Of a DNA stretch of 64,000 nucleotides, positions 912-19,025 are shown piece by piece; position 1 is the first letter of the stretch, and every line of letters begins with the position of its first letter. Source of the DNA: an uncultured Candidatus Saccharibacteria bacterium (GTDB lineage Bacteria; Patescibacteriota; Minisyncoccia; JAHISW01; Tagabacteraceae); NCBI GenBank assembly GCA_964601305.1, contig CAZRMW010000001.1, forward strand, positions 135,450 through 199,449. Reading direction: 5' to 3'. A program made the position numbers and the translations under genes. The notes under the pieces were generated by a model that worked only from the letters and a program-made list of their open reading frames with translations, was not told the DNA's origin and searched no databases.

Positions 912-1760
912 TTAGAGTTTAAATTCTTCCTCGCCATAAAGATTTAAGTAATCCTTGCTAATGCCACCACAGCTTGTTTTATGTTTACAATTCTTACATA
1001 ATTTTATTTTTGTTTTTTGTAGATTTTCTTCAAGACACGGAAAAGCAAGCTCTCGATACTCTTTTGGAAAAACGCACGCAGGGTATTCTACAAACAAAAA
1101 CTTCACACCACTATGTTTATCTTGGCATTTTATTAGAGCTGGGACAACATCGCTCATCTTGGCAACCATTTTTTTAGAGGACCCAATCTTCTTATTTATA
1201 GGCATTATATGCCCTATATTTATTTCTACTACGCCAAGGCCAACAAAAAAACTTACTATTTCGTAAAGTTGTTTAAGATTTTTTTGAGTAACCATAATAT
1301 TAACAACCAAACTTGTTTCTAGTTTTTTATACAAAAGAATATTTTTTATTCCAGCAAGAGTTTGCTCAAAACTATTTTTGTCCAAAGTGTGCATGTCGTG
1401 CATTTTTGCACTATTTCCCATTACAGTAATTACAATTTGATCCGATCCACTTTTGAGAGCATTTTTAGCAAAATTTTTATAAGCAAACATTCTGCCATTT
1501 GTAGTAATACTAATATTCTTAAAATCCAATTTTTTTGCGTACAAAATAAGCTCAAAAATATCTTTGCGCAAAGTTGGCTCTTGCCCCATAAAGTTTATAA
1601 AATCAAAATTCTCTCTTATCAGTTTCATTTCTCTTTTAATCTCTGCAGTCGTTTTTTGTGAAAATTTTCTATCTGCTTCAAAACAAAAAATACACCGGTT
1701 GTTGCACACATAGCCAGCATAAACAAAAGGGCTCTTGCCTACTGTGTAATAATTATCCAT
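912..1760 (-). CDS. Radical SAM protein with C-terminal CxxCx5CGG auxiliary-cluster-like motif
   Basis: CNNRCIFC (CxxxCxxC), FMGQEPTL (GGEP-like), C-terminal CKNCKHKTSCGG...Y. Confidence 0.8.
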   Translation of the reverse strand: MDNYYTVGKSPFVYAGYVCNNRCIFCFEADRKFSQKTTAEIKREMKLIRENFDFINFMGQEPTLRKDIFELILYAKKLDFKNISITTNGRMFAYKNFAKNALKSGSDQIVITVMGNSAKMHDMHTLDKNSFEQTLAGIKNILLYKKLETSLVVNIMVTQKNLKQLYEIVSFFVGLGVVEINIGHIMPINKKIGSSKKMVAKMSDVVPALIKCQDKHSGVKFLFVEYPACVFPKEYRELAFPCLEENLQKTKIKLCKNCKHKTSCGGISKDYLNLYGEEEFKL

Positions 1761-3636
1761 GTTTTAGTTCTTTTATTTCTTTATCCCCCTTTTTTTTAAA
1801 ATAAGGTTTTGCTAAACCGCCACATTTATCAAAGTATACACAACTCTTACAAACCTTGGGTTTTATTTTGTATTTATCTTCGTATATGTATCCCTTCTTT
1901 GTTTTACTTTTGGAAACACGCTCTGGACCAAACCCTTTTTGATTTATATCTTCATATCTGTTTTGAGGAGTGAAAAAAGTTATATTTTTTATATCGAAAA
2001 CTTCTGGTTCAAAAATACAAAAAGGAAAATCAAAAATATCTACCTTATCAAAATGTTTGGAAAATTCTGATATTTTTTTAAACCCCAAAGATAAATCCTT
2101 ATACCCCACAGCTATATTGTTGTAAGCGCTAGTTCCCCTGCCATCTGGAAGAAGTTCTAAAAGATGCCATTCTCCAACACCCAAATCTCTTAAAAAATCT
2201 GCCATCTCCAAAAGATGTTTGTAGTTCATTTTCGAAACAACTGTATTTATTATTACTTTCACTTTTGGATTTTTAATAGCGTTTTTAACCCCCGAAAGAC
2301 ATTGCTTAAAAGAGCCTGGCGTTCTTGTCATTCCATCGTGCAGCACTTTTTTGTGCCCATGAAGAGAAAAATTTATAACCCGAAGACCTTCATCAACACC
2401 TTTTTTAAGAAAATAATCGTAGCCAAACAACCGACCATTTGTGGTTAATCGAATATCGTCAAAACCTATTTTTTTTGCCCCCGAAACAAGATTAAAAAAA
2501 TCTGATCGTATACTCACCTCTCCACCAATAAATTCTATTATTCTATATCCATCTTTATAGGCTTGTTTTACATCTTCTAATATTTCTTTTGTGCTTCTGT
2601 TTATATTTCTGTCTGAAACTGTTGTACAAAAAACGCAATTATTATTACACGACCAACCAGTAACCGCCAAAAAAACTTCTCCTTTGTTTTCAGTTTCTGT
2701 TTTTTTTCTGCTGACAACAGGTTTTAGTTCATCTGCCCCGTAGATTGAAACATAATCTTTCCAAAGTCCTCCACATCTATCGTCAAAAAAACATTTCTCA
2801 CAAACAGATGATTTTATTTTTGTTTTTTTATGAAATTTTTTAGAAGCAAGTTGATATCTTGTATTTTGATTTGCATCAACAAGACCAACATTTTCCGGCT
2901 GATCTAATTCTTGTTGATCAAGTAAAACATCTTCATATTCACTTAAAAAACACAGCGGCACCGTACCACACGTACTTAAAGAAAAATTTATTTTTTTCTT
3001 TTTGCATAAATCTAGAGCCTCTTTTAAATATGGTTCTACCTTCGAGAGTTTTGGAAAAATATCCTTATTCTTTAGAGCTGCGCCAGCAGGATAAATAAAA
3101 GAAAAAGTAATATTTTTTATTTTAGGAAAATTTTTATCAACAAATTTCACAAAGTCTGGCAAATACTCATAATTGTATCTAGAAATAATATGGTACAAAG
3201 AAACATCTTTACATTCACAAGACAGCAAGTTCTCTATTCCTTTTATTGTTTTATCAAAAGAATTTTTCGTGCCAGTAATTTTTTCCGAAATATTTTTTTT
3301 GTGTGAATGAAGCGACACTGAAAAAGATGCAGGCAATAATTTTTTTACCAAACCCCTATCTGCCAAAGAAACTCCGTTGGTTAAAATGTTAATTTTTTTA
3401 AAGCCCAGACCCACGGCAAAACCAACAAGCTCTTTGAGGTCCTTTCTCAGGGTCGGTTCTCCGCCGTCGAAGTAAATTTCATCATATCCTTCTTTTGCCT
3501 TTTTTTCTAAAATTTTTTTAGATTGACTCGTATTTAGAAGCTTGATTTTTGGCTCATCGCCCCCCCGCGCACAAAACAAGCACTTTTGATTGCAATTTCC
3601 TAAACTAGCAAAATATATTTTTTTTGTACTTTTCAT
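1753..3636 (-). CDS. Fused tandem double radical SAM protein (two rSAM cores, each followed by a CxxCx5CGG motif)
   Basis: CNQKCLFC near the N-terminus and CNNNCVFC around residue 330. FDGGEPTL and FIGGEVSI. CEKCFFDDRCGG mid-protein and CKSCVYFDKCGG at the C-terminus. Confidence 0.8.
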   Translation of the reverse strand: MKSTKKIYFASLGNCNQKCLFCARGGDEPKIKLLNTSQSKKILEKKAKEGYDEIYFDGGEPTLRKDLKELVGFAVGLGFKKINILTNGVSLADRGLVKKLLPASFSVSLHSHKKNISEKITGTKNSFDKTIKGIENLLSCECKDVSLYHIISRYNYEYLPDFVKFVDKNFPKIKNITFSFIYPAGAALKNKDIFPKLSKVEPYLKEALDLCKKKKINFSLSTCGTVPLCFLSEYEDVLLDQQELDQPENVGLVDANQNTRYQLASKKFHKKTKIKSSVCEKCFFDDRCGGLWKDYVSIYGADELKPVVSRKKTETENKGEVFLAVTGWSCNNNCVFCTTVSDRNINRSTKEILEDVKQAYKDGYRIIEFIGGEVSIRSDFFNLVSGAKKIGFDDIRLTTNGRLFGYDYFLKKGVDEGLRVINFSLHGHKKVLHDGMTRTPGSFKQCLSGVKNAIKNPKVKVIINTVVSKMNYKHLLEMADFLRDLGVGEWHLLELLPDGRGTSAYNNIAVGYKDLSLGFKKISEFSKHFDKVDIFDFPFCIFEPEVFDIKNITFFTPQNRYEDINQKGFGPERVSKSKTKKGYIYEDKYKIKPKVCKSCVYFDKCGGLAKPYFKKKGDKEIKELKHG

Positions 3637-3637
3637 T

Positions 3638-4534
3638 TTATTTTTTTACTGGAACAAATTCGCTCCAACCATAAAGCTCTGGGTATTCTTTCCATGGACC
3701 TTCGCAAACTTTAAAGTATTTACATTTTTTACAATTTGGCCCTTTTGTTTTTCCTTTTGACACTCTGTATTTTGAATAATCTTTCACTGCAAATCCAGCG
3801 TCGTATATGCTAGTTTCTGGAATAAAATTTTCAGCAATACAATTTTCGTAGCCCCCCATTAGACAATACGGTATAGCTTCTGTAGAGACAATTTTACCTG
3901 CCTTAATGCCTATATCCAAAGCTTTTTTCACAAAAGGCATTATTTCTGATTTTTTAGGAGTGATCCATTCTCTATTTTCCCAAGCCGTACCACCCAAATG
4001 AATAAAGGCAAATTGGAACTGATTTACCCCTAATTTGGTGAAAACCTTAGCCATTTTCACCAAATACCTATAATTTTTCGAGGTAATCACCGAATTTGTC
4101 AAAACATATTGCCCCAAATCCTTTAAGTTTTCTATACCCCGCAAAGTCTGTTTAAAGCTTCCTTTTGCTCCCGTTAAAAAATCATGTATCTCAGCTGTAT
4201 GGCCATGAAGAGAGGGGGAAAATTCTGTCGCCCCCGCATCAACAGCCCTCCTGCAAAAATCTTTATACGCAAACATCCTACCATTTGTCTGAATTTGAAT
4301 TTGTTTAAATCCAATATCTCTAGCTAAAGAAATAACTTTTAAAATATCTGGGTGCATACATGGCTCCCCTCCTGTAAAAACAACTTCTCTTTTTCCTTCA
4401 GCAAAAGATTCTTTTAGGGACTTTTCTATTTCTTTTATATCCTTGTTCGCGCGAAAATCTCGCTTCTTGCCCTGCACACAAAACAAGCAATAATTATTAC
4501 ACCCAAAACCTATTTTTATATCTACTCGTTCCAT
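3638..4534 (-). CDS. Radical SAM protein (same family)
   Basis: CNNYCLFC, FTGGEPCM, C-terminal CKKCKYFKVCEGPWKEY. Confidence 0.8.
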   Translation of the reverse strand: MERVDIKIGFGCNNYCLFCVQGKKRDFRANKDIKEIEKSLKESFAEGKREVVFTGGEPCMHPDILKVISLARDIGFKQIQIQTNGRMFAYKDFCRRAVDAGATEFSPSLHGHTAEIHDFLTGAKGSFKQTLRGIENLKDLGQYVLTNSVITSKNYRYLVKMAKVFTKLGVNQFQFAFIHLGGTAWENREWITPKKSEIMPFVKKALDIGIKAGKIVSTEAIPYCLMGGYENCIAENFIPETSIYDAGFAVKDYSKYRVSKGKTKGPNCKKCKYFKVCEGPWKEYPELYGWSEFVPVKK

Positions 4535-5654: not shown

Positions 5655-7015
5655 TAAAGATTCTTTTTATTAGCTAGTGGATCTTTTTTGAAATAATCAC
5701 CATAAAACACCTTGGACGCTTGCCTACTTCCTCCTTTGCATTTAGAAACAAAAAAACATTTTTTGCATTCTTCTGGCAAATAATTTAAACTGCGGATTTT
5801 TTTTAGAAATTTATTTTTCCATACTTTTAGCACACTTGAAGTATCTCCTAAATTTTCATCGATAAAATAATGTGGTTTGTAAAACCCTCTCGGATCGACA
5901 ACAATTCTTGAATGTCCGTCGTCGGCAGTTGCGCCAACAGAAATACTACTCAATTTATTTGTATCTTTAATTGCACAAAAAGGAAGAGAGTTAGCTAAAG
6001 CAATAGGCATATCTAGTGTTTTTCTTATTTTAAAAATTTTTTCTACAAAAACTTTTACTAATTTAGAGTCTAAGATATTTTCTCCCGATATAGGAATTGG
6101 CCTATAAAACTCCCACTCATCAATGGGAAGTTTTTCAATAAAATCAGCCATATTTTCAAGATTTAAAATATTTTCTTTTGTAAGCACTGTGCCAACACGA
6201 ACAGTTTTTATTCCACTTTCTTTCAAAAATTTTATAGAGATTTCTTTCTTTTTTAAAACCCCTTTTCCTCCTGTAATTATATCCTCTTTTTGGGGTAAAT
6301 AATTTTCTATTGGGATTAAAATGTTGTCGACAAGTTTTGCTAAATTGTCTGCCATGGCTTTGTTTACCAAAATTCCATTTGTGTTTAGCCTTACTTCATC
6401 AAATCCCCTATTTTTTGCATACTTAAGAATTTTAAAAATATCTTTTCGTAAAAGAGGCTCCCCTCCAGTAAACCTGACTGTTTTTATTTTTGAACTATAG
6501 ACATCGTCTATAATTTTTTTTGTTTTCTCAAAACCCAACCGGGGAGACTTTTCTCTTCCACAAGAGGCAAAGGAAATTTTATTAAAACAAAAATTACACC
6601 TTAGATTACACTTTGGCTCTATTTCTATCATTACTTCTGTAGGTAAATCCAAAATAGGACTAAAGCCATTCTCCCTATAGTATTTCAAGTATCCCTTCGG
6701 GAATCCTCCACAAGATTTGTCCCACTTACATTTTTTGCAACTTTTCCCTTTATCTCCAGAAAAATTATCAAAAACGATATGGTCAAGAGAATTTGAAGAA
6801 ACCAAGCAATATGGAAAATTCTTTAAAATAATTTTTATCTTGCTTTCATATTTATTTAAAAGATTGTAAATAGATTCGAGAAGTTCTGGAAAAGACGGTA
6901 AATCAAGCAAGTTTTCTGCCAAAATAATTTCTAAGTTTTCTGATCTACTTTCAACAGCAATCTTCGCCAAAGAATCTATTGTTGAATAGTTTTGTTTGTC
7001 TATTTTATATTTCAT
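5654..7015 (-). CDS. Radical SAM protein with an extra N-terminal domain carrying the family CxxCx5CGG motif
   Basis: N-terminal CKKCKWDKSCGGFPKGY, central CNLRCNFC, FTGGEPLL, C-terminal CKKCFFVSKCKGG. Confidence 0.75.
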   Translation of the reverse strand: MKYKIDKQNYSTIDSLAKIAVESRSENLEIILAENLLDLPSFPELLESIYNLLNKYESKIKIILKNFPYCLVSSNSLDHIVFDNFSGDKGKSCKKCKWDKSCGGFPKGYLKYYRENGFSPILDLPTEVMIEIEPKCNLRCNFCFNKISFASCGREKSPRLGFEKTKKIIDDVYSSKIKTVRFTGGEPLLRKDIFKILKYAKNRGFDEVRLNTNGILVNKAMADNLAKLVDNILIPIENYLPQKEDIITGGKGVLKKKEISIKFLKESGIKTVRVGTVLTKENILNLENMADFIEKLPIDEWEFYRPIPISGENILDSKLVKVFVEKIFKIRKTLDMPIALANSLPFCAIKDTNKLSSISVGATADDGHSRIVVDPRGFYKPHYFIDENLGDTSSVLKVWKNKFLKKIRSLNYLPEECKKCFFVSKCKGGSRQASKVFYGDYFKKDPLANKKNL

Positions 7016-7653
7016 TTTCTCAAAACTCTAAAGTTTTCTTCATCAATAATTTCTACAACAGTAGAAGGTCTCTTTTTAGGCAACTCGCCAACATCCAAAA
7101 TTAATATATCTGAGGGAAAATTATTTTCCTCTCCAAATTGATTTAACAGCTCCTCTACGCTATAACACACCTCCCTACCAGATAAATTGGCGCTAGTTCC
7201 CACAAGTGGATTATTCAATTTAGAAAGTAGTTTTAAATAAAAAATATTTCTAGGAATTTGTATACCAATTGTTTTTAATCCAGGATTTAGACTAATAGGT
7301 ACGTTGTCTTTCCTTGGTACAATAAATGTAAATATTTTTTCTTGTTTTTTTTGAAGTATTCTTTCAACCAAAAAACTTGCCTTTCCATAAGTATTAAACT
7401 CTTCTACATTTTTGACTGTTATAAAAAAGGGCTTACTATAATCCCTGTTTTTAAACTGATAAATTTTTTTTATTGCATCTTCATTGTTCATATCGGCACC
7501 TATGCCATAGCAAGAATCTGTAGGATGCACAATAAGACCCCCTCTCTCTATCACCCCAATCGAAGCTTTTATTGCTTCATTTACTTCTTTCTCGTTTTCT
7601 TGATTTATTTTTAAAATTTCCATACTCATATCAAAGTGTAATGTTAGGCTCAA
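7012..7653 (-). CDS. YrdC/Sua5/TsaC-family (threonylcarbamoyl-AMP synthase-like) protein
   Basis: HPTDSCYGIGAD resembles the PTDTxYGLG signature. About 210 aa. Shares a 4-nt overlap with the downstream gene. Confidence 0.65.
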   Translation of the reverse strand: MSLTLHFDMSMEILKINQENEKEVNEAIKASIGVIERGGLIVHPTDSCYGIGADMNNEDAIKKIYQFKNRDYSKPFFITVKNVEEFNTYGKASFLVERILQKKQEKIFTFIVPRKDNVPISLNPGLKTIGIQIPRNIFYLKLLSKLNNPLVGTSANLSGREVCYSVEELLNQFGEENNFPSDILILDVGELPKKRPSTVVEIIDEENFRVLRK

Positions 7654-8668
7654 AATTTTTGAATTTTATTTTGTATTTATTTTGGTAATAGGCCAAGCAT
7701 CCAATCATTGCAGCATTATCTAACCTATATTCTTTTTTTGTTGGCTTTCTTAAAATAATTTCACCCCTTATTTTATTTTTGATTTTTTTGTACAAATCTT
7801 TGTTTTGAGAAAGTCCACCAACTAAATGAACCTCTTTTGCTTTCTTTTTTTTAGCTAGCAAAACTATTTTTTCAGAAAGTATTTCGTTTAATGATTCTTG
7901 AAAACTTGCTGCCACGTCTCTGGCAAAAGATCTGCTAATCCTTCCTGTTTTTCTTTTTTCTACCTCTATAAAAAGTTTAATTTGCTTTAAGAAATTAAAA
8001 AAGTTTAAATCTGTCAAATCTCCTTTGTAATACTTTTTGAAATTATATTTACAGGGATCCCCTTGCTCCATAATCTTTATAGCATTTTTAATTCCATCTA
8101 CATCGTCTCTGGAGGGCTTAACAACCCCTAAACTCTTTCCAACTGCCCTAAAAATTTTTCCAACACCTATAAAAGTTTTTATTCCGGCAATTTTTTTAGT
8201 TTCCACACTTCCACAAAGAGATTCGAAACTCTTTATATTTTTGATCAACGCAAAATCGCTATGGCTTCCAGAAGCAGAAAAAACTAATATTGGAAAATTA
8301 AAATCTTCTGGTTTTCTTTCGATCCACGAGGAATAATTGTGAGCCAAGATATGATCAACTTCCACGACGGGTTTTTTGTAAATCTTTCCCAACAACTTGG
8401 CAAACGATAATCCAACCAAAACGCAGTTATATATACCAGACTTTGAACTGACAGCAATAGCATCTATTTTATCCAAATTTATATTTTTATTATTTATATT
8501 TTTTAGCAAAAACTCTAAATGTTTTTTGGGGAGCAATTGAATAAACTCTCTCCAGCTCTTTGTTGGCAAATACCCTGAACCAGTTTTGTTAAACAAAACT
8601 TCTGTTCCATTTTCTACTATAGAAATTGCGGCACTAAAACCAGTTGTATCAATTGCTAAAATTCTCAT
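7631..8668 (-). CDS. Kae1/TsaD(Gcp)/HypF-type ASKHA-fold protein, divergent
   Basis: MRILAIDTTG start, HILAH (HxxxH metal motif), SASGSHSDF resembles SGGHT. About 345 aa. Immediately follows the YrdC-like gene. Confidence 0.55.
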   Translation of the reverse strand: MRILAIDTTGFSAAISIVENGTEVLFNKTGSGYLPTKSWREFIQLLPKKHLEFLLKNINNKNINLDKIDAIAVSSKSGIYNCVLVGLSFAKLLGKIYKKPVVEVDHILAHNYSSWIERKPEDFNFPILVFSASGSHSDFALIKNIKSFESLCGSVETKKIAGIKTFIGVGKIFRAVGKSLGVVKPSRDDVDGIKNAIKIMEQGDPCKYNFKKYYKGDLTDLNFFNFLKQIKLFIEVEKRKTGRISRSFARDVAASFQESLNEILSEKIVLLAKKKKAKEVHLVGGLSQNKDLYKKIKNKIRGEIILRKPTKKEYRLDNAAMIGCLAYYQNKYKIKFKNFEPNITL

Positions 8669-9822
8669 AACAATTCTTTAACTACTTTATTTCTCTTAAT
8701 TTTTCCTAAATTTAATTTTAAAAAACTTTTTTTCATTTTCTTTGTATTTTTTAAAGCACTTTTTACTTCTTTTTTAAAAATATTTTTTGAATCTTTGTCT
8801 ACAACTCTAGCCACACCAACATTTTTTAAAAATTTTGCTCGTTCATATTGTTCTTTGCTGTCTCTGTCTAGCGGAACTAACACTGATGGCACCCTCGCCT
8901 GCACTATTTCATTACAAACATTATAGCCCGCTGTAGATATTATTAAACTAGACAAAGTAAAAAGTTCGGGTAAGTTTTTTTCAAAAGATATTAATTTTAT
9001 TTTTAGTTTTCTTCTTTTAACTTCTTTTTTAAGTTTATCTAAATATTTAAAAGAAGGCCCCACACAAATAATCATTCTTGCTTTTGTTTCTTCTTTTTTT
9101 ATTTCTTCAAAAATTTCCACAGTTCGCTTCGCTACCCAAAAAGGAGACTTGCAATTAGCATTAACTATTTCTCCTCCACCCCCCAAAGAGACGGTAATTA
9201 AAAAATCATTATTTTTTATTTTATATTTTACTCTGCATTCACTTATATTTTTTTTAGAAATACTTTTTACTATACTCCCTGAAATAAAAAATTTTTTGTC
9301 TTTTTTAATATTTTTAAATTCTTTTTTAGATAAAATTCTAGCGACCTCTTCTTCACTATGTGGAATAATAATTTTATCAAACTCACTTAAAATTTCACTT
9401 CTTTTTTTTAAAACTAATTGATACTTTTCTTTGTCAGCTAATCTAAAGATTAACACCTTTTTTATATCACCAAACTCCGAGTCTAATATTTCAAAAGGGA
9501 AAGAAAACCCAAACAAAAAAACATCAACCACTATAGTATCTGGCTTGTGTTTGTAGATAGTTTTAATAAATTTTTCTCTATTTTTTTCCTTGGTTTTTAA
9601 AATACTTTTTCTTCCTTTTTTAATTAGACCATCTGAGGCAGGAGTAAGCCGTACAAAGGAAATATTGTTTTCTTTCAAAAAATGTGGTGATTTGCTTAAA
9701 GTGGCAAACAAAATATCTGTTTTTGGTTTTTCTTTTTTAACCAAATTAGCCAAAAGAATTGATCTTCTTAAGTGCCCTAAGCCAACACTATTTGAAGCAT
9801 AAAATAAAATTTTTTTATCCAT
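8665..9822 (-). CDS. GT-B fold glycosyltransferase-family protein (MurG/PseG/SpsG-like)
   Basis: N-terminal FYASNSVGLGHLRRSILLANLV matches the PseG/MurG G-x-G-H..R motif. C-terminal STAGYNVCNEIVQARVPSVLVP resembles the MurG C-terminal domain. Confidence 0.5.
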   Translation of the reverse strand: MDKKILFYASNSVGLGHLRRSILLANLVKKEKPKTDILFATLSKSPHFLKENNISFVRLTPASDGLIKKGRKSILKTKEKNREKFIKTIYKHKPDTIVVDVFLFGFSFPFEILDSEFGDIKKVLIFRLADKEKYQLVLKKRSEILSEFDKIIIPHSEEEVARILSKKEFKNIKKDKKFFISGSIVKSISKKNISECRVKYKIKNNDFLITVSLGGGGEIVNANCKSPFWVAKRTVEIFEEIKKEETKARMIICVGPSFKYLDKLKKEVKRRKLKIKLISFEKNLPELFTLSSLIISTAGYNVCNEIVQARVPSVLVPLDRDSKEQYERAKFLKNVGVARVVDKDSKNIFKKEVKSALKNTKKMKKSFLKLNLGKIKRNKVVKELL

Positions 9823-10726
9823 TTTTGTTTTTTAAAAACTTGGCAATACAAGGCCCCTCTATCAAACAATCTTTTTCTTCTGTTTTGTAAAGCAAGCTAT
9901 TAAAATATTTTTCAATCTCTCTGCAATTTTTAAAATCACCAAGTTTTTTTCTGTGCCAACTAGCCAGTGGGAGGCATCTAAAAACAGATAAATCTGTGCC
10001 TATATCAAACTTTCCGGAATTACCCTCGCAACCATATTTAATCCCTTTCTTATTGAAAACATCTTTAGATAGACCACAGCCCAAACCGACTCCTATGTTT
10101 TCTCTTTTAATTTTTTGGATTTCATTTATAAGTTTTTCTGAGTTTACAGAAAAATTCGGATTAGCCAGTCTTAAAACAATATTTTTTATACCAAATCTTT
10201 TGGCAATTTTTATTAAATAGTCTGATTCAAACTTATCGTCAAAAACGACCGCACCCACCAGAGTGTTTTTAAAAACAGAAATTTTTTCTAAATTTTTTAA
10301 AACCTGGTTCCATATTTTGGAAGAATATTTTTCTTTTGGATTTATATTAAAACTATATCTTATTCGAGAATCCTTACTTAACAAAAAATCTAAAATATTT
10401 TTATCAAAAATTCCGTTTGTAAAAATTTGCACAGAAAACCCTCTTTTTAAAGACGCTTCTACAATTTCTTTGAATTTAGGGTGCAAAGTTGGCTCTCCAC
10501 CCATTAGACGCACCTTTTTTTCTCTGCTCCCCCCCAAAAAATCCAAAACTTTTTCAAAATCAGAAAAAGACATTTCTTTGTTTTTTTTCTCCATTTCGCT
10601 TTTAGCAAAACAATAAGAACATTTTTGATTACATCTATTTGTCAGTAAAATATTAGCCATAGAATATAAGTTTATTCTATATAAAATAAACCAAATGAAA
10701 AAGGCATGCTGTACAAGACAACACAC
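9815..10726 (-). CDS. Radical SAM protein (start probably at MANILLTNRCN, position 10660)
   Basis: CNQKCSYC, LMGGEPTL, Cys-containing C-terminus. Confidence 0.75.
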   Translation of the reverse strand: MCCLVQHAFFIWFILYRINLYSMANILLTNRCNQKCSYCFAKSEMEKKNKEMSFSDFEKVLDFLGGSREKKVRLMGGEPTLHPKFKEIVEASLKRGFSVQIFTNGIFDKNILDFLLSKDSRIRYSFNINPKEKYSSKIWNQVLKNLEKISVFKNTLVGAVVFDDKFESDYLIKIAKRFGIKNIVLRLANPNFSVNSEKLINEIQKIKRENIGVGLGCGLSKDVFNKKGIKYGCEGNSGKFDIGTDLSVFRCLPLASWHRKKLGDFKNCREIEKYFNSLLYKTEEKDCLIEGPCIAKFLKNKNG

Positions 10727-10749
10727 CTTTAGCTTGAAAGACCCTTACC

Positions 10750-10965
10750 TTACCAACTGGTAATTTCGGTCTCATCGACACCGAAAAACATATCGGTGTC
10801 GATGGCTGACGGCAAGTTTGTCGAAAACCATTTCATGATTTCGGCATCATTTATGTTTATGCCGAAATACATGTCAGAATCGACGGCCGACATAGGCTCG
10901 GCAGCGATGGCCAGAGAAGCAACAAAACAAACAATAAGTGCGGCGATAAGCAGTGAACGGATCAT
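10750..10965 (-). CDS. Small secreted/signal-peptide protein with two internal repeats (DSDMYFGI.../DTDMFFGV...)
   Basis: 71 aa with a hydrophobic N-terminus (LLIAALIVCFVASLAIAA). Strong SD AAGGAG 7 nt before the ATG. TTGACA-N17-TAAACT promoter on the minus strand at about 11024-11052. GC about 46% against about 30% in the flanks. Confidence 0.5.
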   Translation of the reverse strand: MIRSLLIAALIVCFVASLAIAAEPMSAVDSDMYFGININDAEIMKWFSTNLPSAIDTDMFFGVDETEITSW

Positions 10966-11066
10966 GATGTCTCTCCTTTTTTTATCTGTTTTTTAAAATA
11001 TCACATCCCATAATCTATTCTGAAGTTTATCATAGCCTATTCTATCTGTCAAGACCCTGATACAAT

Positions 11067-12233
11067 TTAAAAACGATTTAGTTTTTCTATTCTTATTCCT
11101 TCTTTTTTCTTCAACACCCTTCTTCTATGTTGACGCCCAGTACATTCACCTGCAATTTTTCCAATTGCCACATCTTTTTTAAGACAATTCTGCTCTTGAC
11201 GCATATTTACCATACTTTGATCAAACCACAATTCTTTAAGTGATGTTTTTTTTACGTTTCCAGTCGGCAAATCTTCCCTCATCCAACAAGGAACAACATT
11301 CCCTTTTTCGTTAATAAACAATGACATTTTCTCCATTAAGCAAATGTCCCCATCCAAAAACGGAGCACCGATCCAACTCCAACCCTCTTTTTGAATCTTT
11401 TCCATTTTTTGATTAAATCCAAAAATTTGCTTTTCTGTAAGTTGTAATTTTTTAAAATTATCAATAGCCCTACCAGACCACTGTATCCTTTCTACACAAG
11501 GTTGTATATTATGACCAACACACCATTTGATGATATTAGGCACCTCTTTGTAATTCAAACTACAAAGTAAATTATTGTTTATTAATCTGGTTCTGCCCCA
11601 CTGATTGCTTTTATTAAAACCTGCCGACATCAAATTAAAAACACCTTTATACATTTTAGTTGCTGCGCCAGACACACCAACTAAATAGTCTTGTGTTTTA
11701 GAATCAAAAGAATTGATCTTAAATATAATCGAACAATCTAAGTCATATAGCCTATGGGCAATCTTAGGTGTAACTAAAATTGCATTTGTCAGCAATAAAC
11801 TACGAACACCTTGGCTTCTTGTGTATTCCATTAACTTCCAAATAAAAGGATATAACAATGGTTCGCCTCGTCCAGCAAAAATTACTTGTTTAACCCCCAA
11901 ATCAGCTGCCTGCTGAATTATGTTTTTATATTCTTCTTCCGATAATATTTGACTTTTGTTTTCTTTGCCACAGCTACCCAAACAATAAATACATTTCAAA
12001 TTACATTTTTTACCAAGAAACAACTGTAGTTTGTCGGGACGATAATCAGATTCAAAATCGACTAAACTATTTTTACAATACAATTTCCTAAAAACACCTC
12101 TTTGGTTTTTTGGTAAATTCCTGTTTGTGGAAGGCAAAATATCAAAAGCTGATTTTGTTGTTTTAATCATAAAATAAATTAATTTATAAAATCTATAAAA
12201 TACTCGTAAGAATACTCTTGCTTTCTTGGACAA
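11067..12233 (-). CDS. Radical SAM protein (start likely MIKTTK, position 12170)
   Basis: CNLKCIYCLGSC, FAGRGEPLL, Cys in the C-terminal part. Confidence 0.75.
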   Translation of the reverse strand: MSKKARVFLRVFYRFYKLIYFMIKTTKSAFDILPSTNRNLPKNQRGVFRKLYCKNSLVDFESDYRPDKLQLFLGKKCNLKCIYCLGSCGKENKSQILSEEEYKNIIQQAADLGVKQVIFAGRGEPLLYPFIWKLMEYTRSQGVRSLLLTNAILVTPKIAHRLYDLDCSIIFKINSFDSKTQDYLVGVSGAATKMYKGVFNLMSAGFNKSNQWGRTRLINNNLLCSLNYKEVPNIIKWCVGHNIQPCVERIQWSGRAIDNFKKLQLTEKQIFGFNQKMEKIQKEGWSWIGAPFLDGDICLMEKMSLFINEKGNVVPCWMREDLPTGNVKKTSLKELWFDQSMVNMRQEQNCLKKDVAIGKIAGECTGRQHRRRVLKKKEGIRIEKLNRF

Positions 12234-13147
12234 AATCTTTTTTTAGTATCTTCTATAGATATTGAAAAACTATTCCCCCAATTAAGGTGTTCGTACCCTT
12301 TATTGGCAAGCATTTCTAGAAAAAAGAGATTCAAAACACCACTAGCACCCGGTATTTTTCTGTCTACACACAAAACACTTCCAGATAAATTCTTTGATTT
12401 TGCAAGTTTGAAGGCAATATTTATCCCTATTGGACGCTGGTTGCAACACAAAACAAAACTTTCATACAATCTTGGGTTTTTTAGTGTTTCTTTTACTATT
12501 CTTAGATTCTTATTATAAACATGCTTGTAAGTAACAAGATTGGTCTCCTCTTTCTCCGCCCCCCTCTCTTTGTGTTTTTTCCAATCATCTAAAAGTCTTT
12601 TTACGCCACAATAATTACTATCTAACAATGGCTGGTAGGAAATTTGTTGTTTAGTTTTCTGTTTAGCTACAAAATTAAAAAAACTATTCCAACTTTTTCG
12701 TCTTAAATCAGGCTTGTCAGACAAAAAATCTTCTAAGTTTTTATAATCAGGCAGGTAAGAAATAAGCCTCTTTCGTTTTACAAATTTTATGGATTTGAAC
12801 TTTTCGTTGTGCAAATATTTATCTAAAACCTGTTCTGGCAACTCCCAAAGCCAAGCTTTTCTAAAATTTTTACCTAATTTATCTTTTCGTTTGATTAAAA
12901 AAGAAAATAATTTCTCTTGCCAATCTTTACCCTTGGGACAACAGAAAAAATACATTCCTGAATTAAACTTACCAAAAAAGAAAATATCTTTCCCGTCGTT
13001 GTAACTCAGGGCTAGTTTATTGCCATCAATATAATTATCAACAAAAGCTTCGCTGTCACTAAAAAAAGAAGAATTGGGGCTACATAAACGATTAAAGAGT
13101 TCTACGTCACCCTTATTAATTGAATGTATTTCAGATAAATTAACCAT
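12179..13147 (-). CDS. Hypothetical protein (322 aa), no confident family assignment
   Basis: Long ORF co-directional within the operon. No recognisable motif. Confidence 0.45.
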   Translation of the reverse strand: MVNLSEIHSINKGDVELFNRLCSPNSSFFSDSEAFVDNYIDGNKLALSYNDGKDIFFFGKFNSGMYFFCCPKGKDWQEKLFSFLIKRKDKLGKNFRKAWLWELPEQVLDKYLHNEKFKSIKFVKRKRLISYLPDYKNLEDFLSDKPDLRRKSWNSFFNFVAKQKTKQQISYQPLLDSNYCGVKRLLDDWKKHKERGAEKEETNLVTYKHVYNKNLRIVKETLKNPRLYESFVLCCNQRPIGINIAFKLAKSKNLSGSVLCVDRKIPGASGVLNLFFLEMLANKGYEHLNWGNSFSISIEDTKKRFCPRKQEYSYEYFIDFIN

Positions 13148-13157
13148 TATTAAATAT

Positions 13158-14531
13158 TTAATTAAAATCTTTTTCTAGTTTAGGGTGATTTGGAAGATTT
13201 TCTAGCTTCTTAAGAGCAATTAAAATCTCCGACAAACTAGTCTGACAAAATAAATGCACCCAATCATTAATCATCTCCTGTCTATCAAAACTATCTTTAT
13301 ATTTATATTTCTTCTCCATTTTTTTAACCAATAATTGAAAAGACAAAGAATTAGGCAAAGGCTCAAAAATATGAGACAAGACCACATTCATACCTAACGC
13401 ATTAAGTTTATACACAAAATCTACTGTCCGATCTATTGAATCTTTGCTTTCTCCTGGACCACCAAACACAAAATTCCCTATTACACTAATTCCGGCTTTC
13501 TTCAAATCTTTTACAGCCTTAAACCCAATACTAGTTACTGTGCCTTTTTTCATAGAAGAAAGTATTTTTGGATCACCGCTTTCTAGCCCCAAAACAACCT
13601 GATGAATGTTGAGATCTTTAATTTTTTTAATATTCTCAGAATTTATATCATCAGCTCTAGCATAAACTCTCATTCGTGGTTTAAAACTATATCCTTTGTA
13701 CAAACTGTGAAATTCTTTAAACCAACCTTTCTGATCAAAAAAATCATCACTAATATCCCAAATAAGATCCGCGTTAAATTTTTTTACCAAAGAATCTATC
13801 TCTTCCAAAACTAAATGGGGACTACGAGCTCTTAGGCTCTTATACATTCTAGAACAAAAAATACAGCCACCTTTTGAATTTGTGCGCCAACCACAACCCT
13901 TTTTTGAATATATATGAAAAACATTTTTGTAAAAGCGATCAGGCCATTTTTGATCGAAAATTTTATAATATTTTTTATAATCAATTATTTCCCGACCAAA
14001 ATTGGGCAAGCTGTTTAAATCAACGTGTTCAATTATATTTTTTTTAATAGAGCCGTCTTTTCTGTCTTGGAAAACAAGATTCTTTATTTTGCTTAAAGGT
14101 TTGCCTATTGCATATTCATAAAAACTCCTTTCCCCATCTTCTTGAATAACCGCATCAACACAATAATTATCAGAACAAATTCCTCGATTTAGCATAATTT
14201 CTTCAGCAAGACCTGTTGCATGATGGCCACCCATAACAACTTTACTGCCCAACATCTTCGATTTTAAAGCCAAAGACAAAGCATTGCCATAATTAACAAG
14301 CATTGGTCCAATTCCCACCAAGTCCGGTTTATTTTCTTCTAAAAAAGAAATAGTTTCAGAAAGATCCAAAATTTGGCCATCTAAAATATGTATTTCTGCT
14401 TTTAAATTTTTTCTTTCTAAATAATTAGCCAGACTAATAGCCCAAAGTGGTGGATAAATACACCCCTCAATAAAAACGTTATCATTATATCCATCGTCGT
14501 CTTTTGGGGGATCTATCAACACAATAATCAT
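13158..14531 (-). CDS. B12-binding domain / radical SAM (class B rSAM, methyltransferase-like)
   Basis: N-terminal Rossmann-like cobalamin-binding region (LVGIGPM...VVMGGHHATG), then CGWRTNSKGGCIFC and LGLESGD. Typical class-B architecture. Confidence 0.7.
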   Translation of the reverse strand: MIIVLIDPPKDDDGYNDNVFIEGCIYPPLWAISLANYLERKNLKAEIHILDGQILDLSETISFLEENKPDLVGIGPMLVNYGNALSLALKSKMLGSKVVMGGHHATGLAEEIMLNRGICSDNYCVDAVIQEDGERSFYEYAIGKPLSKIKNLVFQDRKDGSIKKNIIEHVDLNSLPNFGREIIDYKKYYKIFDQKWPDRFYKNVFHIYSKKGCGWRTNSKGGCIFCSRMYKSLRARSPHLVLEEIDSLVKKFNADLIWDISDDFFDQKGWFKEFHSLYKGYSFKPRMRVYARADDINSENIKKIKDLNIHQVVLGLESGDPKILSSMKKGTVTSIGFKAVKDLKKAGISVIGNFVFGGPGESKDSIDRTVDFVYKLNALGMNVVLSHIFEPLPNSLSFQLLVKKMEKKYKYKDSFDRQEMINDWVHLFCQTSLSEILIALKKLENLPNHPKLEKDFN

Positions 14532-15241
14532 AGATGACTTTTTTTAAGAATATATATTGGATAAAGTTCAAAATCGCTGTAATCAGCAGCCATTTTTAAA
14601 TCACGAACAATAAAATATTTTGATAAAAGCTCATCAATTTCTTCTACTGTTCTTTGTGTAAGAATTTGAGAATCATTCTTTTTGTTAATAATATTTTTAT
14701 CAAACAAACACACGCGGGTAACAAAAAATCCAGTCTCTTTCAGCAAAAGAGAAATTCTTTTTAAAAATTCCGCTTGTTCATTTGGCTCAAAATTACACAA
14801 AACAAAATCACCAATAATTAAATCAAAATGACTTTCTTTTAAAAAACCAGTCAAATCCATCCAATTAGCCTTTGTCCATTTTTCATTATTTTTAACCTCC
14901 TCTTTACATACCACAACATCAATATTAAGCTTAAACAAAACATCTCTTATTTCTGGGGTAGAACCTAAGAGCAAAACTTTTTCTTTTATGCTTATTTGAT
15001 TAAAAATCAGCAAGTAATTTTTGATATCTTCTGGAGAAAGCCTAAAAGGAGAAGAATATTCGGCCCACCTTGATAAAGCGCCACCCTGATCTAGTTCGTC
15101 AAATAAGCTATTGTTATTCGACAATTCTAATGATTTCTGTAGTTTTTTATTGTTGTTTATACCTCTTATTGTCATTAATTTTTCAGCTGATATTTTAAAT
15201 TTCTTTTGTGTTATTCTCTCATAAAAAGTATGGGCACTCAA
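14528..15241 (-). CDS. Rossmann-fold SAM-dependent methyltransferase-like protein (paralog A)
   Basis: VLLLGSTPEIRDV...VVVCKEE and FDLIIGDFVLCNFEPNEQAEFLKRISLLLKETGFFV (motif II/III-like). Paralogous to 15284..16135. Confidence 0.4.
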   Translation of the reverse strand: MSAHTFYERITQKKFKISAEKLMTIRGINNNKKLQKSLELSNNNSLFDELDQGGALSRWAEYSSPFRLSPEDIKNYLLIFNQISIKEKVLLLGSTPEIRDVLFKLNIDVVVCKEEVKNNEKWTKANWMDLTGFLKESHFDLIIGDFVLCNFEPNEQAEFLKRISLLLKETGFFVTRVCLFDKNIINKKNDSQILTQRTVEEIDELLSKYFIVRDLKMAADYSDFELYPIYILKKSHL

Positions 15242-15283
15242 GCATTTGTACCAAAAGAAGTATATATTAATTTAATACGACGC

Positions 15284-16135
15284 TCACTCCAAGCATCGTT
15301 TTTTCATTTTGTATACTGGATAAAATTCCGAATCTATATAGTCACCAGAGTTTATATTTTTATTTATATAAAAACTATCCAAAAACATTTTTTCTAATTC
15401 TTCTTTAGTATTCTGAACCCATGTTCTCTTCCCTCTCCATTTTTTTAAAATATTTTCTAAAACAACTTTTTCTCTTTTGCTTGTTGTTTTGTTATTTAAA
15501 TAGTTATAAATATCATTGGTAAATTTTTCTTTATTAATTTTTTTATTTTTCAGATTTGTGTTTTTATCAAACAAACGAGATGTTATAAGATCCTCGATCA
15601 ATTTACTTTTCAAAACAGAATATTTTTTAAAAGCGTTTTTTATTATATTTTCTGACTTAAAATTAATCATTTTTTTGTTAAAACAATGTATTCTCGTAAT
15701 AAAAATTCCTTCTTTGTTTAATAGTCTTGAGATTTTGTTTAAAAACTTGCTTTGGTATTTGGTCTCAATATTTCGCAAAACCAAATCTCCCAAAATAAAA
15801 TCAAAATAATTATCCTCAAAAAATTTATCTAAATTTAACCAATCAATTTTTATCCATTCTTCTTTGTTTTTGTTAATTTTGTATCCTAATTTAGTCATTT
15901 CTTCCATCATTTCTATAGAAAAATCTGCCACAGTAATTTTAGAACTATTTTTTGAAAAAATTTCTCTAATTTCTGGGGTAGCTCCCAACAATAATATTTT
16001 TTTATTACTATCTATACCAGAAAAATAATTTTTTATGTCCTTTTTAGAAGGTCTGAAAGGGAAAGTATATTTATTCCATAACAAAGAAGCATTTTCCCAA
16101 TTTGATTTTTTAAAATTACTCTTTTTTGTTTTCAT
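15284..16135 (-). CDS. Rossmann-fold SAM-dependent methyltransferase-like protein (paralog B)
   Basis: ILLLGATPEIREIF, FDFILGDLVLRNIETKYQSKFLNKISRLLNKEGIFI. Clearly homologous to 14528..15241. Confidence 0.4.
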   Translation of the reverse strand: MKTKKSNFKKSNWENASLLWNKYTFPFRPSKKDIKNYFSGIDSNKKILLLGATPEIREIFSKNSSKITVADFSIEMMEEMTKLGYKINKNKEEWIKIDWLNLDKFFEDNYFDFILGDLVLRNIETKYQSKFLNKISRLLNKEGIFITRIHCFNKKMINFKSENIIKNAFKKYSVLKSKLIEDLITSRLFDKNTNLKNKKINKEKFTNDIYNYLNNKTTSKREKVVLENILKKWRGKRTWVQNTKEELEKMFLDSFYINKNINSGDYIDSEFYPVYKMKKRCLE

Positions 16136-16197
16136 TAAAAAATAATACCAAAGGATTGGTATTTATAAAACACAAACAACTAGCTGTAATCTCAAAA
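16136..16197 (-). terminator. Intra-operon hairpin plus U-tract (partial terminator/attenuator) between the membrane-protein gene and the methyltransferase-like genes
   Basis: On the minus strand, AAUACCAAUCCUUUGGUAUU (8-bp stem) is followed by AUUUUUUA immediately before the next start codon. Confidence 0.4.
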
Positions 16198-17109
16198 CTA
16201 CTCAATCTCACACAACAAACCTAAAAAAACACTTAAATGTTCCGTCTCGCAATAATCTCCCTTGATGTATTCTTCGTATTCTTTTATCCTTAAAATTTCG
16301 TCATTGCATACTATTTCTGAAGTTCCCATATTTTTACAAACTAGACGAGAAAAATCTTCACCTAAAGATCTATAGGCATAAGCAATTCTAATACCAGTCT
16401 GCACCTCTCTTATTTTTTTATTTTCTACCAAAGGCCCTATGCCCTCTATCGCTTTGAGTGCTTCACCTTCTTCTAGCCCGGAAAAACTCTTTGCAACGTC
16501 ACAAATATTATCACATTTCTTCGGAAATCCACTAGGAGTAGTGTCCAAAGAATTTAATCCATCCTCACATCTTTTTGTTAAAAGACTACAAGTATCTTCG
16601 TTTAAATCTTCTACTGTGGCTAAAACAAGTATAAGTTTATTAAAACCTTCTCTTTCTTCTAATTTTTCCAGATATGTTTTTTTTGATTCATCAGCAGTAT
16701 CTTCTTGATAATTTATATTTTCAATAAAATTTTTAGCTCTATTATAAAAATCTTCATCATTAGGATTTGCAAGAGATTTACATATTAAATATCTTCTAAG
16801 TTTACCGACAGCCAAAGACATTCTGTCTAATTCAAATGTAGTATTTCTAAAAACAATGTTGTTAACCTTAAAATCCAAGCTTTTGTCTGATTCTTTTAGA
16901 TTTGCTAATTTTTCTATCAACTCATCGTCTGATAAATTTTTAGATTCTTCTAAACATTTTGCTTTTACCGCTTCTGATGAAATATGGTGTTGGTCTCTAC
17001 TAAAAAACCAAAAAGCCACAGCTAATAAAATCAAAACAACTGCTGTAAATATTATTGAAAATTTTTTATTTTGTAGCATTTGAAAAATTAATAAGCCGGA
17101 CTCATACAC
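16198..17109 (-). CDS. Membrane-anchored Cys-rich hypothetical protein
   Basis: N-terminal TM segment (FSIIFTAVVLILLAVAFWFF) and many Cys residues. Probable start at M11, which removes the overlap with the precursor gene. Confidence 0.5.
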   Translation of the reverse strand: MYESGLLIFQMLQNKKFSIIFTAVVLILLAVAFWFFSRDQHHISSEAVKAKCLEESKNLSDDELIEKLANLKESDKSLDFKVNNIVFRNTTFELDRMSLAVGKLRRYLICKSLANPNDEDFYNRAKNFIENINYQEDTADESKKTYLEKLEEREGFNKLILVLATVEDLNEDTCSLLTKRCEDGLNSLDTTPSGFPKKCDNICDVAKSFSGLEEGEALKAIEGIGPLVENKKIREVQTGIRIAYAYRSLGEDFSRLVCKNMGTSEIVCNDEILRIKEYEEYIKGDYCETEHLSVFLGLLCEIE

Positions 17110-17570: not shown

Positions 17571-17591
17571 TAACTAAATTATAACAATTAT

Positions 17592-19022: not shown

Positions 19023-19025
19023 AAA

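Follow-up and report, generated by a model that had tools for sequence, protein, structure and literature searches.

The window, by which we mean the whole 64-kb stretch of DNA that was analyzed, carries a gene for a TsaD-like protein followed directly by one for a YrdC-like protein, both placed within a long series of radical SAM and glycosyltransferase genes on the reverse strand. A sequence-only reading of this DNA had claimed a YrdC-like and Kae1/TsaD-like pair inside a peptide modification cluster with radical SAM and glycosyltransferase neighbors, and on both points it holds: the Pfam matches and the AF2 and PDB fold comparisons, which give TsaD, establish the pair as real, and the cluster includes a run of 11 radical SAM genes together with HxsA4, HxsB, and HxsD. 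The features are as follows.

912..4534 (-): HxsC-like radical SAM array of 298 aa, 627 aa (two domains), and 282 aa
4536..5654 (-): radical SAM/SPASM protein, 372 aa; PF04055 and PF13186
5654..7015 (-): radical SAM protein, 453 aa; PF04055; ATGA overlap onto the YrdC-like gene
7012..7629 (-): predicted TsaC/YrdC-like adenylate synthase, 205 aa from ATG 7629; PF01300, 147 bits
7631..8668 (-): TsaD-like transferase of the cluster-type family "T1," 345 aa; PF00814, 109 bits
8665..9822 (-): GT28 (MurG-like) glycosyltransferase; PF04101; ATGA overlap onto the TsaD-like gene
9815..14531 (-): variable tailoring block comprising a radical SAM protein (303 aa), a 71-aa secreted repeat protein, a radical SAM/SPASM protein, a 322-aa conserved protein, and a B12-binding radical SAM protein
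14528..17109 (-): two methyltransferase-like genes and a 303-aa protein; PF08241 for 15284-16135
17088..17570 (-): HxsA4 His-Xaa-Ser repeat protein, candidate substrate; about 25 HGS repeats and a Cys-rich C terminus; NF038313, 107 bits versus a cut-off of 55
17592..19022 (-): HxsB radical SAM maturase; TIGR03978, 529 bits versus a cut-off of 370
19026..19629 (-): HxsD-like protein (75 aa) and HxsD (140 aa); NF038315, 73 bits versus 41, and TIGR03976, 65.6 bits versus 50

The mechanical open reading frame of the YrdC-like gene (7012-7653, reverse strand) begins at TTG 7653; homologues and public gene calls back a start at ATG 7629 or 7623, and from ATG 7629 the gene starts 1 nt past the TGA of the TsaD-like gene. 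The two genes had been described as overlapping each other as well as their neighbors. The 4-nt ATGA overlaps with the GT28 gene upstream of the TsaD-like gene and with the radical SAM gene downstream of the YrdC-like gene are present, whereas mutual overlap within the pair exists only if translation is counted from TTG 7653. Identical TsaD-like and YrdC-like proteins are encoded by at least seven public contigs.

The arrangement is not peculiar to this contig. A fixed order, GT28-(GT2)-TsaD-like-(YrdC-like)-radical SAM-HxsC-like radical SAM array-A24-like peptidase, was found in all 16 independent contexts read, at 43 to 58% identity, and the contigs of the TsaD-like clusters also carry the HxsD/HxsB/HxsA4 module. 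GT28 precedes the TsaD-like gene at every locus read, with GT2 often between them or fused; orthologues of the 453-aa radical SAM protein (40 to 50% identity) follow immediately downstream in nearly all loci, those of the HxsC-like array are 56 to 69% identical in related clusters, and the continuation seen in locus L001 places two further radical SAM genes and the A24-like peptidase past the window start. The 303-aa radical SAM protein, the 322-aa conserved protein, and the B12-binding radical SAM protein of the tailoring block have orthologues in several related loci, and relatives of the 14528..17109 proteins adjoin HxsA4 in locus L095. The best NCBIfam matches of the 372-aa protein are radical SAM/SPASM models of the peptide maturase type, all under cut-off. 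The comparison of related clusters revealed no conserved small precursor gene adjoining the pair, and the 71-aa secreted repeat protein (10750-10965), which was considered as a conserved RiPP precursor, was rejected in that it has no homologue there. The complement of the pair itself varies: one cluster (Ga0315545_1001047) contains two different TsaD-like/YrdC-like pairs, another (L093) has two TsaD-like genes and a single YrdC-like gene, and a second-tier pair adjoins an SHMT-family gene, whose product might supply a beta-hydroxy amino acid. In a divergent subclade the TsaD-like gene is present and the cluster YrdC gene is absent, which fits the use of TC-AMP from a housekeeping TsaC.

The TsaD-like protein has the TsaD/Kae1 fold. 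Its AF2 model (pLDDT 91) finds TsaD as the best Foldseek match (E of 1e-21 to 1e-19), and its top PDB matches are bacterial TsaD. It lies far below the NCBIfam equivalog cut-offs, however, with 136.3 versus 296.1 bits for TIGR03723 and 125.8 versus 207.8 bits for TIGR00329, so that the divergence from canonical TsaD noted in the sequence-only reading is borne out. The HxxxH of that reading is indeed kept as part of an HxxxH...D metal triad, with H106, H110, and D317 invariant throughout the family, as are H136 (SGSH136S), GGxSxN289, and DNAAM. These residues (H106, H110, D317, H136, and N289) correspond in EcTsaD to the zinc ligands H111, H115, and D300, the carboxylate-binding H139, and the adenine-binding N272 (PMC7913687). 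The GGVxxN motif was wrongly reported as missing, given that GGLSQN (284-289) and DNAAM (317-321) are both present in the window protein and family invariant. The actual losses are three: the N-terminal ETSCDET, the GVVPE..ASR loop, and the Asp of GEAFDK. ETSCDET has become DTTGFSA in the window protein and D-T-T-G-F-S in 37/37 family members, such that S9/C10/D11/E12 of EcTsaD are replaced by invariant T/G/F/S, and the 40-44 loop is also exchanged, with xDFPYLLPxxH in place of GVVPE..A(S/A)R.H in all 37 members and His50 alone left. Both loops are invariant in 15/15 canonical reference sequences and in 14 Patescibacteria tsaD loci, and in EcTsaD they line the threonyl and A37 pockets (PMC7913687). 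The GEA(F/Y)DK Asp, which in EcTsaD is the ribose-binding D167 (PMC7913687), is Arg in the window protein, and 33 of the 37 members have Tyr, Arg, or some other residue at this position; the neighboring Glu is likewise exchanged in most members, and the donor may thus bind otherwise than in TsaD. The retention of the metal site and of most adenylate motifs suggests that the protein remains catalytic.

The YrdC-like protein is closer to its canonical counterpart. It has the Sua5/YciO/YrdC fold and exceeds the cut-off of the TC-AMP synthase equivalog TIGR00057 (141.4 versus 123.2 bits). The KxR...SxN tetrad, which sets TsaC apart from its inactive paralogue YciO (PMC4615747, PMC10321239), is present as K60-N-R62 and S146-A-N148 and is invariant in the cluster family. 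Also conserved are the threonine-binding triad T37/S189/R204 and the TsaC signature residue T145, for which the references in Pa-Sua5 are T33/S181/R195 and Thr138 (PMC10321239); the "PGPxT" motif is exchanged. We conclude that the donor is probably a TC-AMP-like adenylate. In public databases, members of the TsaD-like family are already labeled N6-L-threonylcarbamoyladenine synthase at JGI, and a Portnoybacteria member of the YrdC-like family is named L-threonylcarbamoyladenylate synthase at NCBI.

HXS has been described as an antiphage system, HxsA-D (Nat Commun 2026, PMC13128918), and the window resembles it in that HxsA4, HxsB, HxsD, and the HxsD-like protein all pass their NCBIfam cut-offs and HxsC-like radical SAM genes close the cluster. 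The latter find HxsC4 and HxsC as their top NCBIfam matches; the best scores of these models in the window (99 to 234 bits) are below the cut-offs of 268 and 500. The system as described consists of four genes, without TsaD, YrdC, or glycosyltransferase genes (PMC13128918), whereas here HxsA4 is set apart from the HxsC-like genes by some 20 kb of additional radical SAM, glycosyltransferase, methyltransferase, and TsaD/YrdC-like genes. A near-identical HxsA4 architecture occurs on the contig carrying the TsaD-like gene of locus L012, and HxsB homologues share contigs with six other T1 TsaD-like genes; HemN-like radical SAM genes of 465 and 477 aa in loci L005 and L009 were considered as HxsB and rejected. 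Between the pair and the HxsABD module lie 9 to 20 kb, in one genome with intervening genes on the opposite strand, and the link between the pair and HxsA4 is therefore one of neighborhood and not of a shared operon. PADLOC returned no defense system match for the pair and only a generic viperin-like radical SAM similarity for its neighbors.

The strongest competing explanation is that the pair is a simple carbamoyltransferase like TobZ, NodU, or HypF that has been divided over two proteins, as the sequence-only reading proposed: the YrdC-like protein would convert carbamoyl phosphate and ATP to carbamoyl-AMP, which the TsaD-like protein would use to carbamoylate a sugar or side chain at O, N, or S. 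The order of the genes, Kae1-like and then YrdC-like, mirrors the domains of TobZ, NodU, CmcH, and GdmN, tailoring enzymes of biosynthetic clusters that often act on sugars and pass an adenylate intermediate between two active sites, a likeness that we propose for the pair. The pair is always immediately preceded by glycosyltransferase genes, TobZ/NodU-type enzymes are classically known for the O-carbamoylation of sugars (PMC4615747, PMC9654439), and some family members have precomputed matches to PF02543 (Carbam_trans_N) or PF22521 (HypF_C_2). HypF, for its part, applies YrdC-like plus Kae1-like chemistry to a protein acceptor, the C-terminal Cys of HypE, and the tail of HxsA4 is also Cys rich. 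On the scores and the absence of PDB matches, membership of the TobZ/HypF families is nevertheless rejected. On the HypF model TIGR00143 (cut-off of 466.1 bits), the TsaD-like protein scores 16.5 bits and the YrdC-like protein 46.0 bits, against 136 bits for TsaD and 141 bits for TsaC, respectively; PF02543 and PF16861 have no match among the window proteins at an E value of ≤0.01; and neither TobZ nor HypF chains appear among the PDB profile or fold matches of the TsaD-like protein. A PDB profile search with the YrdC-like protein gave Sua5/TsaC at 80 to 120 bits, HypF at 39 to 55 bits, and no match to TobZ. The known enzymes are also built differently: those of the TobZ group are single fused polypeptides (PF02543 plus PF16861) that use carbamoyl phosphate, and HypF fuses four domains (ACP, Zn fingers, YrdC, and Kae1), whereas here there are two separate proteins lacking the ACP and Zn finger domains, and there are no hyp genes. 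The clusters showed no carbamate kinase or CPS gene. As the threonine-binding triad is retained, the TC-AMP synthase cut-off is passed, and the carboxylate-binding His is kept, carbamoyl transfer from carbamoyl phosphate is less likely, and we regard this explanation as rather doubtful.

That the pair represents the housekeeping t6A genes of reduced genomes, merely sitting in a conserved neighborhood, is improbable. In that case tRNA A37 would be the substrate of the TsaD-like protein, which might act without TsaB and TsaE as a homodimer like Qri7. The pair does resemble the bacterial t6A pathway, in which TsaC/Sua5 and TsaD (with TsaB and TsaE) are likewise separate proteins of the same two folds, and TsaD is the best sequence, profile, and structure match of the TsaD-like protein, which shares its zinc triad, H139 equivalent, GGxxxN, and DNAAM. 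A housekeeping role accords with the retained metal site, with the finding that the YrdC-like protein shows every TsaC hallmark tested, with the streamlined, tightly packed nature of CPR genomes, and with the lack of any other tsaC or tsaD in the window and the flanks read. Within the scope searched (64 kb of the 201-kb contig and 20-kb flanks at other loci), no tsaE, tsaB, or second, canonical tsaD was found in the window or at any cluster locus; tblastn queries of the window proteins, of canonical TsaD and TsaC, and of the TsaE domain retrieved nothing beyond the pair in the window and the fetched loci, and Pfam scans of TsaB- and TsaE-sized open reading frames in the window gave no TsaB or TsaE. 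Other Patescibacteria, however, own a canonical tsaD with ETSCDET (14 loci), directly followed by tsaE in 11 of the 14, and canonical tsaD and tsaC are normally not neighbors. The pair lacks tsaB and tsaE nearby and always lies in the radical SAM/glycosyltransferase/HXS cluster, at times as two diverged copies, and S9, C10, and D11, which line the A37 and threonyl pockets, are all exchanged (roles from PMC7913687). The family is also discrete, rare, and patchy. It has six representatives at an E value of <1e-72 in a set of 1.84 billion proteins, occurs in 3 of 185,579 GTDB species genomes in a single pattern-limited scan, and accounts for about 12 loci among 241 M JGI records, with identities of 42 to 60% within the family and then a break to about 30% with canonical TsaD. 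A rough neighbor-joining tree (midpoint rooted, no bootstrap, with TobZ, HypF, and Kae1 sequences left out) places the family as monophyletic outside all ETSCDET TsaDs, and it supports only this placement. These observations support the part of the sequence-only reading in which the two genes are dedicated to the cluster and are not housekeeping t6A genes.

About as improbable is an antiphage function in which the pair acts on nucleosides, nucleotides, or nucleic acids but not on tRNA A37, for example on a free purine nucleotide from MoaA/viperin-like radical SAM enzymes or on incoming phage DNA: HXS is an antiphage system (PMC13128918), the HxsC-like and 453-aa radical SAM proteins have partial MoaA-, BlsE-, and viperin-like matches, and in one genome the stretch from HxsA4 to the cluster holds QueC-like, PRTase, nucleoside phosphorylase, and HD genes, but those matches are far under the family cut-offs, the nucleotide metabolism genes are not conserved across clusters, and the adenine-pocket residues of TsaD are not kept.

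The reading that we favor, with moderate confidence, is that the pair is a cluster-dedicated, two-protein acyl-carbamoyl transfer module evolved from t6A enzymes, and it most likely attaches an activated (threonyl)carbamoyl group to a target other than tRNA. Judging from the residues retained, the YrdC-like protein would make a labile N-carboxy-amino-acid adenylate from ATP, bicarbonate, and an amino acid, with L-threonylcarbamoyl-AMP or a near analogue built on a beta-hydroxy amino acid as the likeliest product. The TsaD-like protein would bind this adenylate at the conserved His-His-Asp metal site and, because the loops of the A37 and threonyl pockets are exchanged, would move the (amino-acyl)carbamoyl group to a nucleophile other than tRNA A37. 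The acceptor would belong to the product of the surrounding His-Xaa-Ser supercluster; our best guess, prompted by the GT28 and GT2 genes that always lie immediately upstream, fused or overlapping, is a sugar or a Ser or His side chain on a glycosylated HxsA4 (HGS)n repeat protein. The close packing of the two genes suggests that their products may work as an adenylate-channeling complex, as TobZ and HypF do within one chain. More tentatively, we raise the possibility that the TsaC/TsaD-derived pair decorates a glycosylated His-Xaa-Ser repeat protein, or the glycan on it, with an amino-acid-carbamoyl group (threonine-like, joined through a ureido or carbamate linkage). Such a protein or glycan modification would be previously unknown, and this would be the first recruitment of the universal t6A enzymes, as separate proteins, for a non-tRNA purpose, here in a CPR supercluster of an expanded, antiphage-related HXS type.

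Few protein families are universal. TsaC/Sua5 and TsaD/Kae1 count among them and are treated as single-purpose tRNA enzymes; to our knowledge, the ancient fused carbamoyltransferases TobZ and HypF are the only off-shoots of these families. We found no description of TsaD or YrdC homologues in biosynthetic, RiPP, or HXS clusters in the literature. The cluster is a rare, glycosyltransferase-rich and very radical-SAM-rich one of the His-Xaa-Ser type in ultra-small Patescibacteria, and the pair is a fixed part of it. If the pair is indeed a discrete, recent-looking paralogue pair in which the adenylate chemistry has been kept and the acceptor pocket rebuilt, TC-AMP-type chemistry can be redirected, and automatic annotation mislabels such TsaD-like and YrdC-like genes. 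It would also offer a concrete way into the chemistry of the very large and unexplored radical SAM/glycosyltransferase supercluster that surrounds the recently described HXS antiphage module in Patescibacteria.

The TsaD-like and YrdC-like genes form a real pair that could be cotranscribed with its glycosyltransferase (GT) and radical SAM (rSAM) neighbors, and it lies within a conserved supercluster.

7631-8668, minus strand: TsaD/Kae1-family protein of 345 aa (Pfam PF00814, 109 bits)
7012-7653, minus strand: Sua5/YciO/YrdC-family protein (PF01300, 147 bits), an ORF with a mechanical TTG start; its ATG is at 7629
17088-19629, minus strand: complete-looking HxsD/HxsD-like/HxsB/HxsA4 module of the His-Xaa-Ser system (HXS)

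Read directly, the junctions place the end of the upstream GT28-like gene within the start of the TsaD-like gene (ttATGAga), which itself stops with TGA; one base on, ATG 7629 opens the YrdC-like gene, whose stop codon shares bases with the start ATG of the rSAM gene that follows (aaATGAaa). The sequence-only reading had the two genes overlapping each other as well as these neighbors; the overlaps hold at the GT28 and rSAM junctions and disappear between the pair genes with ATG 7629, which is favored over TTG 7653 by the alignment of homologs and by public gene calls, at 203-205 aa. Only the mechanical TTG start yields an overlap of 23 nt. Identical proteins are encoded on no fewer than seven public contigs, which reach 201,829 nt in length. 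Four public contigs of 99.9% identity (L001-L004) differ or break at ~9180-9225, in the GT28 gene, and at ~6600-6680, in the gene for the 453-aa rSAM protein: in L001 the GT28 gene is broken into a pair of ORFs by about 105 additional bases, the same point is where L002 and L004 begin, and in L003 a replaced stretch divides the rSAM gene. These differences could represent strain variation or assembly artifact.

The pair belongs to a co-directional, tightly packed block with the following order of transcription.

HxsD, HxsD-like, HxsB, HxsA4, an unknown gene, two methyltransferase-like genes
B12-rSAM, a conserved 322-aa unknown, rSAM/SPASM, a 71-aa secreted repeat protein, rSAM
GT28, TsaD-like, YrdC-like, rSAM (453 aa), rSAM/SPASM
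three HxsC-like rSAM genes, one with a doubled domain

Longer public contigs continue with another two rSAM genes and then with a gene for an A24-like membrane peptidase. HxsA4 is 160 aa long; it has roughly 25 repeats of His-Gly-Ser and, at its C terminus, a tail rich in Cys (ACVCFACCSGGGCM). HxsA4, HxsB, HxsD, and HxsD-like score above their NCBIfam cutoffs and the HxsC-like genes below; no gene above the HxsC cutoff lies beside the HxsD/HxsB/HxsA4 module, the only HxsC-like genes being 13 kb downstream (912-4534). The 2026 description of HXS presents an antiphage system of four genes, with the HxsA repeat protein being matured by HxsB, HxsC, and HxsD (PMC13128918); TsaD, YrdC, and GT components go unmentioned there, whereas the cluster in the window contains them. 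The 322-aa protein (12179-13147, minus strand) has no Pfam, NCBIfam, or PADLOC match and adjoins B12-rSAM, at 44-61% identity, in two related clusters (L005 and L099). The 71-aa protein (10750-10965, minus strand) has a signal-peptide-like N terminus and two D(S/T)DM(Y/F)FG(I/V)..E(I/T)..W repeats; it is precursor-peptide-like in appearance, and no homolog was found in related clusters.

Outside the cluster the window, of low GC (~0.33), holds housekeeping genes (class II RNR, GroEL, RNase J, S6, SSB, and three tRNAs), among which an IS200-like Y1 transposase ORF (41707-42387, minus strand) adjoins S6 and SSB. No TsaB, TsaE, or second TsaC or TsaD was found within these 64 kb. Three genomes have a peptidase U32-family gene close to the cluster (window 23064-24335, plus strand; L009 1-296; L095 19856-20731); the one in L095 forms a pair with a small rSAM gene.

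A word-indexed search returned about 68 proteins at 42-60% identity to the TsaD-like protein, canonical TsaD reaching only ~30%. Exhaustive phmmer against 1.84 billion representatives gave six family representatives at E<1e-72 and 21 matches at E<1e-30; many more variant TsaD-like groups beginning IDT... occur among its matches (P0183-P0225). The family was present in 3 of 185,579 genomes, scanned at one per GTDB species, and at ~12 loci among 241 million JGI metagenome records; the named relatives are Patescibacteria (Portnoybacteria and Parcubacteria). We compared 16 independent contexts (the window, L005, L009, L007/L013, L011, L012, L093, L097, L098, L099, L101, and L103-L107), in all of which GT28 and/or GT2 precedes the TsaD-like gene; where the locus is long enough, this gene is followed by the 453-aa rSAM ortholog, HxsC-like rSAM genes, and, last, the A24-like peptidase. 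The YrdC-like gene is directly downstream in 12 contigs, 3 kb off in one, and missing from the cluster in all three members of the most divergent subclade (L007/L013 on CAWFCE010000002.1, 1.27 Mb; L097; L098), where the TsaD-like gene still sits in an rSAM/GT cluster. The L007 protein carries an insertion of ~70 aa, and its gene is directly followed by that for the A24-like peptidase. Six other family members share contigs with HxsB homologs, the contigs having been matched by their length. On CAYOHI010000002.1 an HxsD-HxsD-like-HxsB-HxsA4 module precedes the TsaD-like gene by ~20 kb and has the same orientation, Ga0315545_1001047 begins with an HxsA4 fragment, and in one genome opposite-strand genes separate the HXS module from the pair.

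In two related genomes (L095 and L096), a type IV pilus operon immediately precedes the HxsD/HxsD-like/HxsB/HxsA4 module. The last cluster gene of every long locus encodes a membrane protein of ~390 aa whose prepilin-peptidase (A24) match is borderline (L001 18062-19240, beyond the window start; also L104, L107, L097, L098, and L007). This protein is a candidate for the peptidase that removes the leader of the repeat protein. In one genome, genes for B12-rSAM, a QueC-like protein, an HD hydrolase, a phosphoribosyltransferase, a nucleoside phosphorylase, and a PLP decarboxylase (L095 13588-18884, minus strand) lie between HxsA4 and the TsaD-like cluster, a possible sign that this variant involves nucleoside chemistry.

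TsaD-like proteins of a second, more divergent tier, at 33-38% identity and with N-terminal IDTxxxx, likewise occur in rSAM/GT clusters, accompanied by their own YrdC-like gene, and on two contigs both tiers share one cluster. At L091 and L104 (one JGI contig, Ga0315545_1001047), L093, and L101, second-tier proteins with N termini IDTILHD or LDTTFNS are encoded alongside the first-tier gene; the second-tier pair of L091 is arranged SHMT-family, YrdC-like, TsaD-like, ATP-grasp.

The pair descends from TsaD and TsaC and not from TobZ or HypF. The TsaD-like protein scores 136 bits with NCBIfam TsaD (cutoff, 296) and 16.5 bits with HypF; a PDB profile search and Foldseek with an AF2 model (pLDDT 91) ranked bacterial TsaD first, followed by Kae1 and Qri7, and neither returned TobZ or HypF chains. 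The YrdC-like protein qualifies as a TsaC on all the sequence criteria applied: it scores 141.4 bits against the TIGR00057 equivalog cutoff of 123.2 and retains the KxR/SxN tetrad, which tells TsaC from YciO, the Thr-binding triad T37, S189, and R204, and the TsaC signature Thr145 (residue roles from PMC4615747 and PMC10321239). The profile of its family gives TC-AMP synthases 80-120 bits, HypF 39-55 bits, and TobZ no match; family-specific changes are YPTETVYG to HPTDTCYG and PGPxT to TFxV. Plain carbamoylation of the TobZ type, against which this descent weighs, is possible but unlikely.

The pair is also distinct from canonical Patescibacteria t6A genes. ETSCDET, SGGH(T/S), and GGV(A/S)AN are encoded in all of 14 Patescibacteria tsaD loci taken from the GTDB scan, with tsaE directly after tsaD in 11. 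A rough NJ tree puts every ETSCDET sequence, these 14 included, into one clade and the window's family into a separate monophyletic group. A housekeeping t6A role, despite the TsaC character of the YrdC-like protein, is thus very unlikely, and the suspicion that these are not housekeeping genes gains support from this separation and from the conserved rSAM/GT cluster.

Position by position, 37 family members were compared with 15 canonical sequences. Kept are H106, H110, and D317, S133-G-x-H136, G284-G-x-S-x-N289, and D317-N-A-A-M; switched to other invariant residues are E7 to D, S9 to T, C10 to G, D11 to F, E12 to S, P77 to S, G135 to S, and GEA(F/Y)DK to GK(I/V)F(Y/R)Q. The reported absence of GGVxxN was thus mistaken, G284-N289 being retained across the family; the loss of the ASRDH-like loop was correctly seen, GVVPE..A(S/A)R.H being replaced with His50 as its sole remnant. 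In an inhibitor-bound EcTsaBD structure, H111, H115, and D300 are zinc ligands, H139 hydrogen bonds the threonine carboxylate, N272 binds adenine and D167 ribose, S9, C10, and P82-G83-L84 shape the threonyl pocket, and loops 9-12 and 40-44 surround a modeled A37 (PMC7913687). Read against these roles, the comparison indicates that the family has kept its catalytic metal site and some of its adenylate site and that the loops on the acceptor and threonyl sides have been rebuilt, as has the contact with ribose.

We suggest that the YrdC-like enzyme would make a TC-AMP-like amino-acid-carbamoyl adenylate, from which the TsaD-like enzyme would pass the amino-acid-carbamoyl group to a non-tRNA nucleophile; in the subclade without a cluster YrdC gene, housekeeping TsaC may supply TC-AMP. 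The putative acceptor is probably located on the HxsA4 repeat protein, as its glycan or as a Ser/His side chain, since the pair always has GT genes directly beside it and the cluster is flanked by HXS components, a link to HxsA4 through gene neighborhood only. We infer this whole scheme, of donor, nucleophile, and acceptor, with slightly more belief than doubt. A nucleoside or nucleic acid as the acceptor, for all the nucleoside-type genes of one variant, is at least as improbable as a housekeeping role.

The literature searched held no description of TsaD/TsaC paralogs in biosynthetic, RiPP, or HXS clusters. The Kae1/YrdC adenylate-transfer couple itself is already known; what is new here is that the two partners are separate proteins, derived from TsaD and TsaC, and that they are dedicated to a gene cluster.
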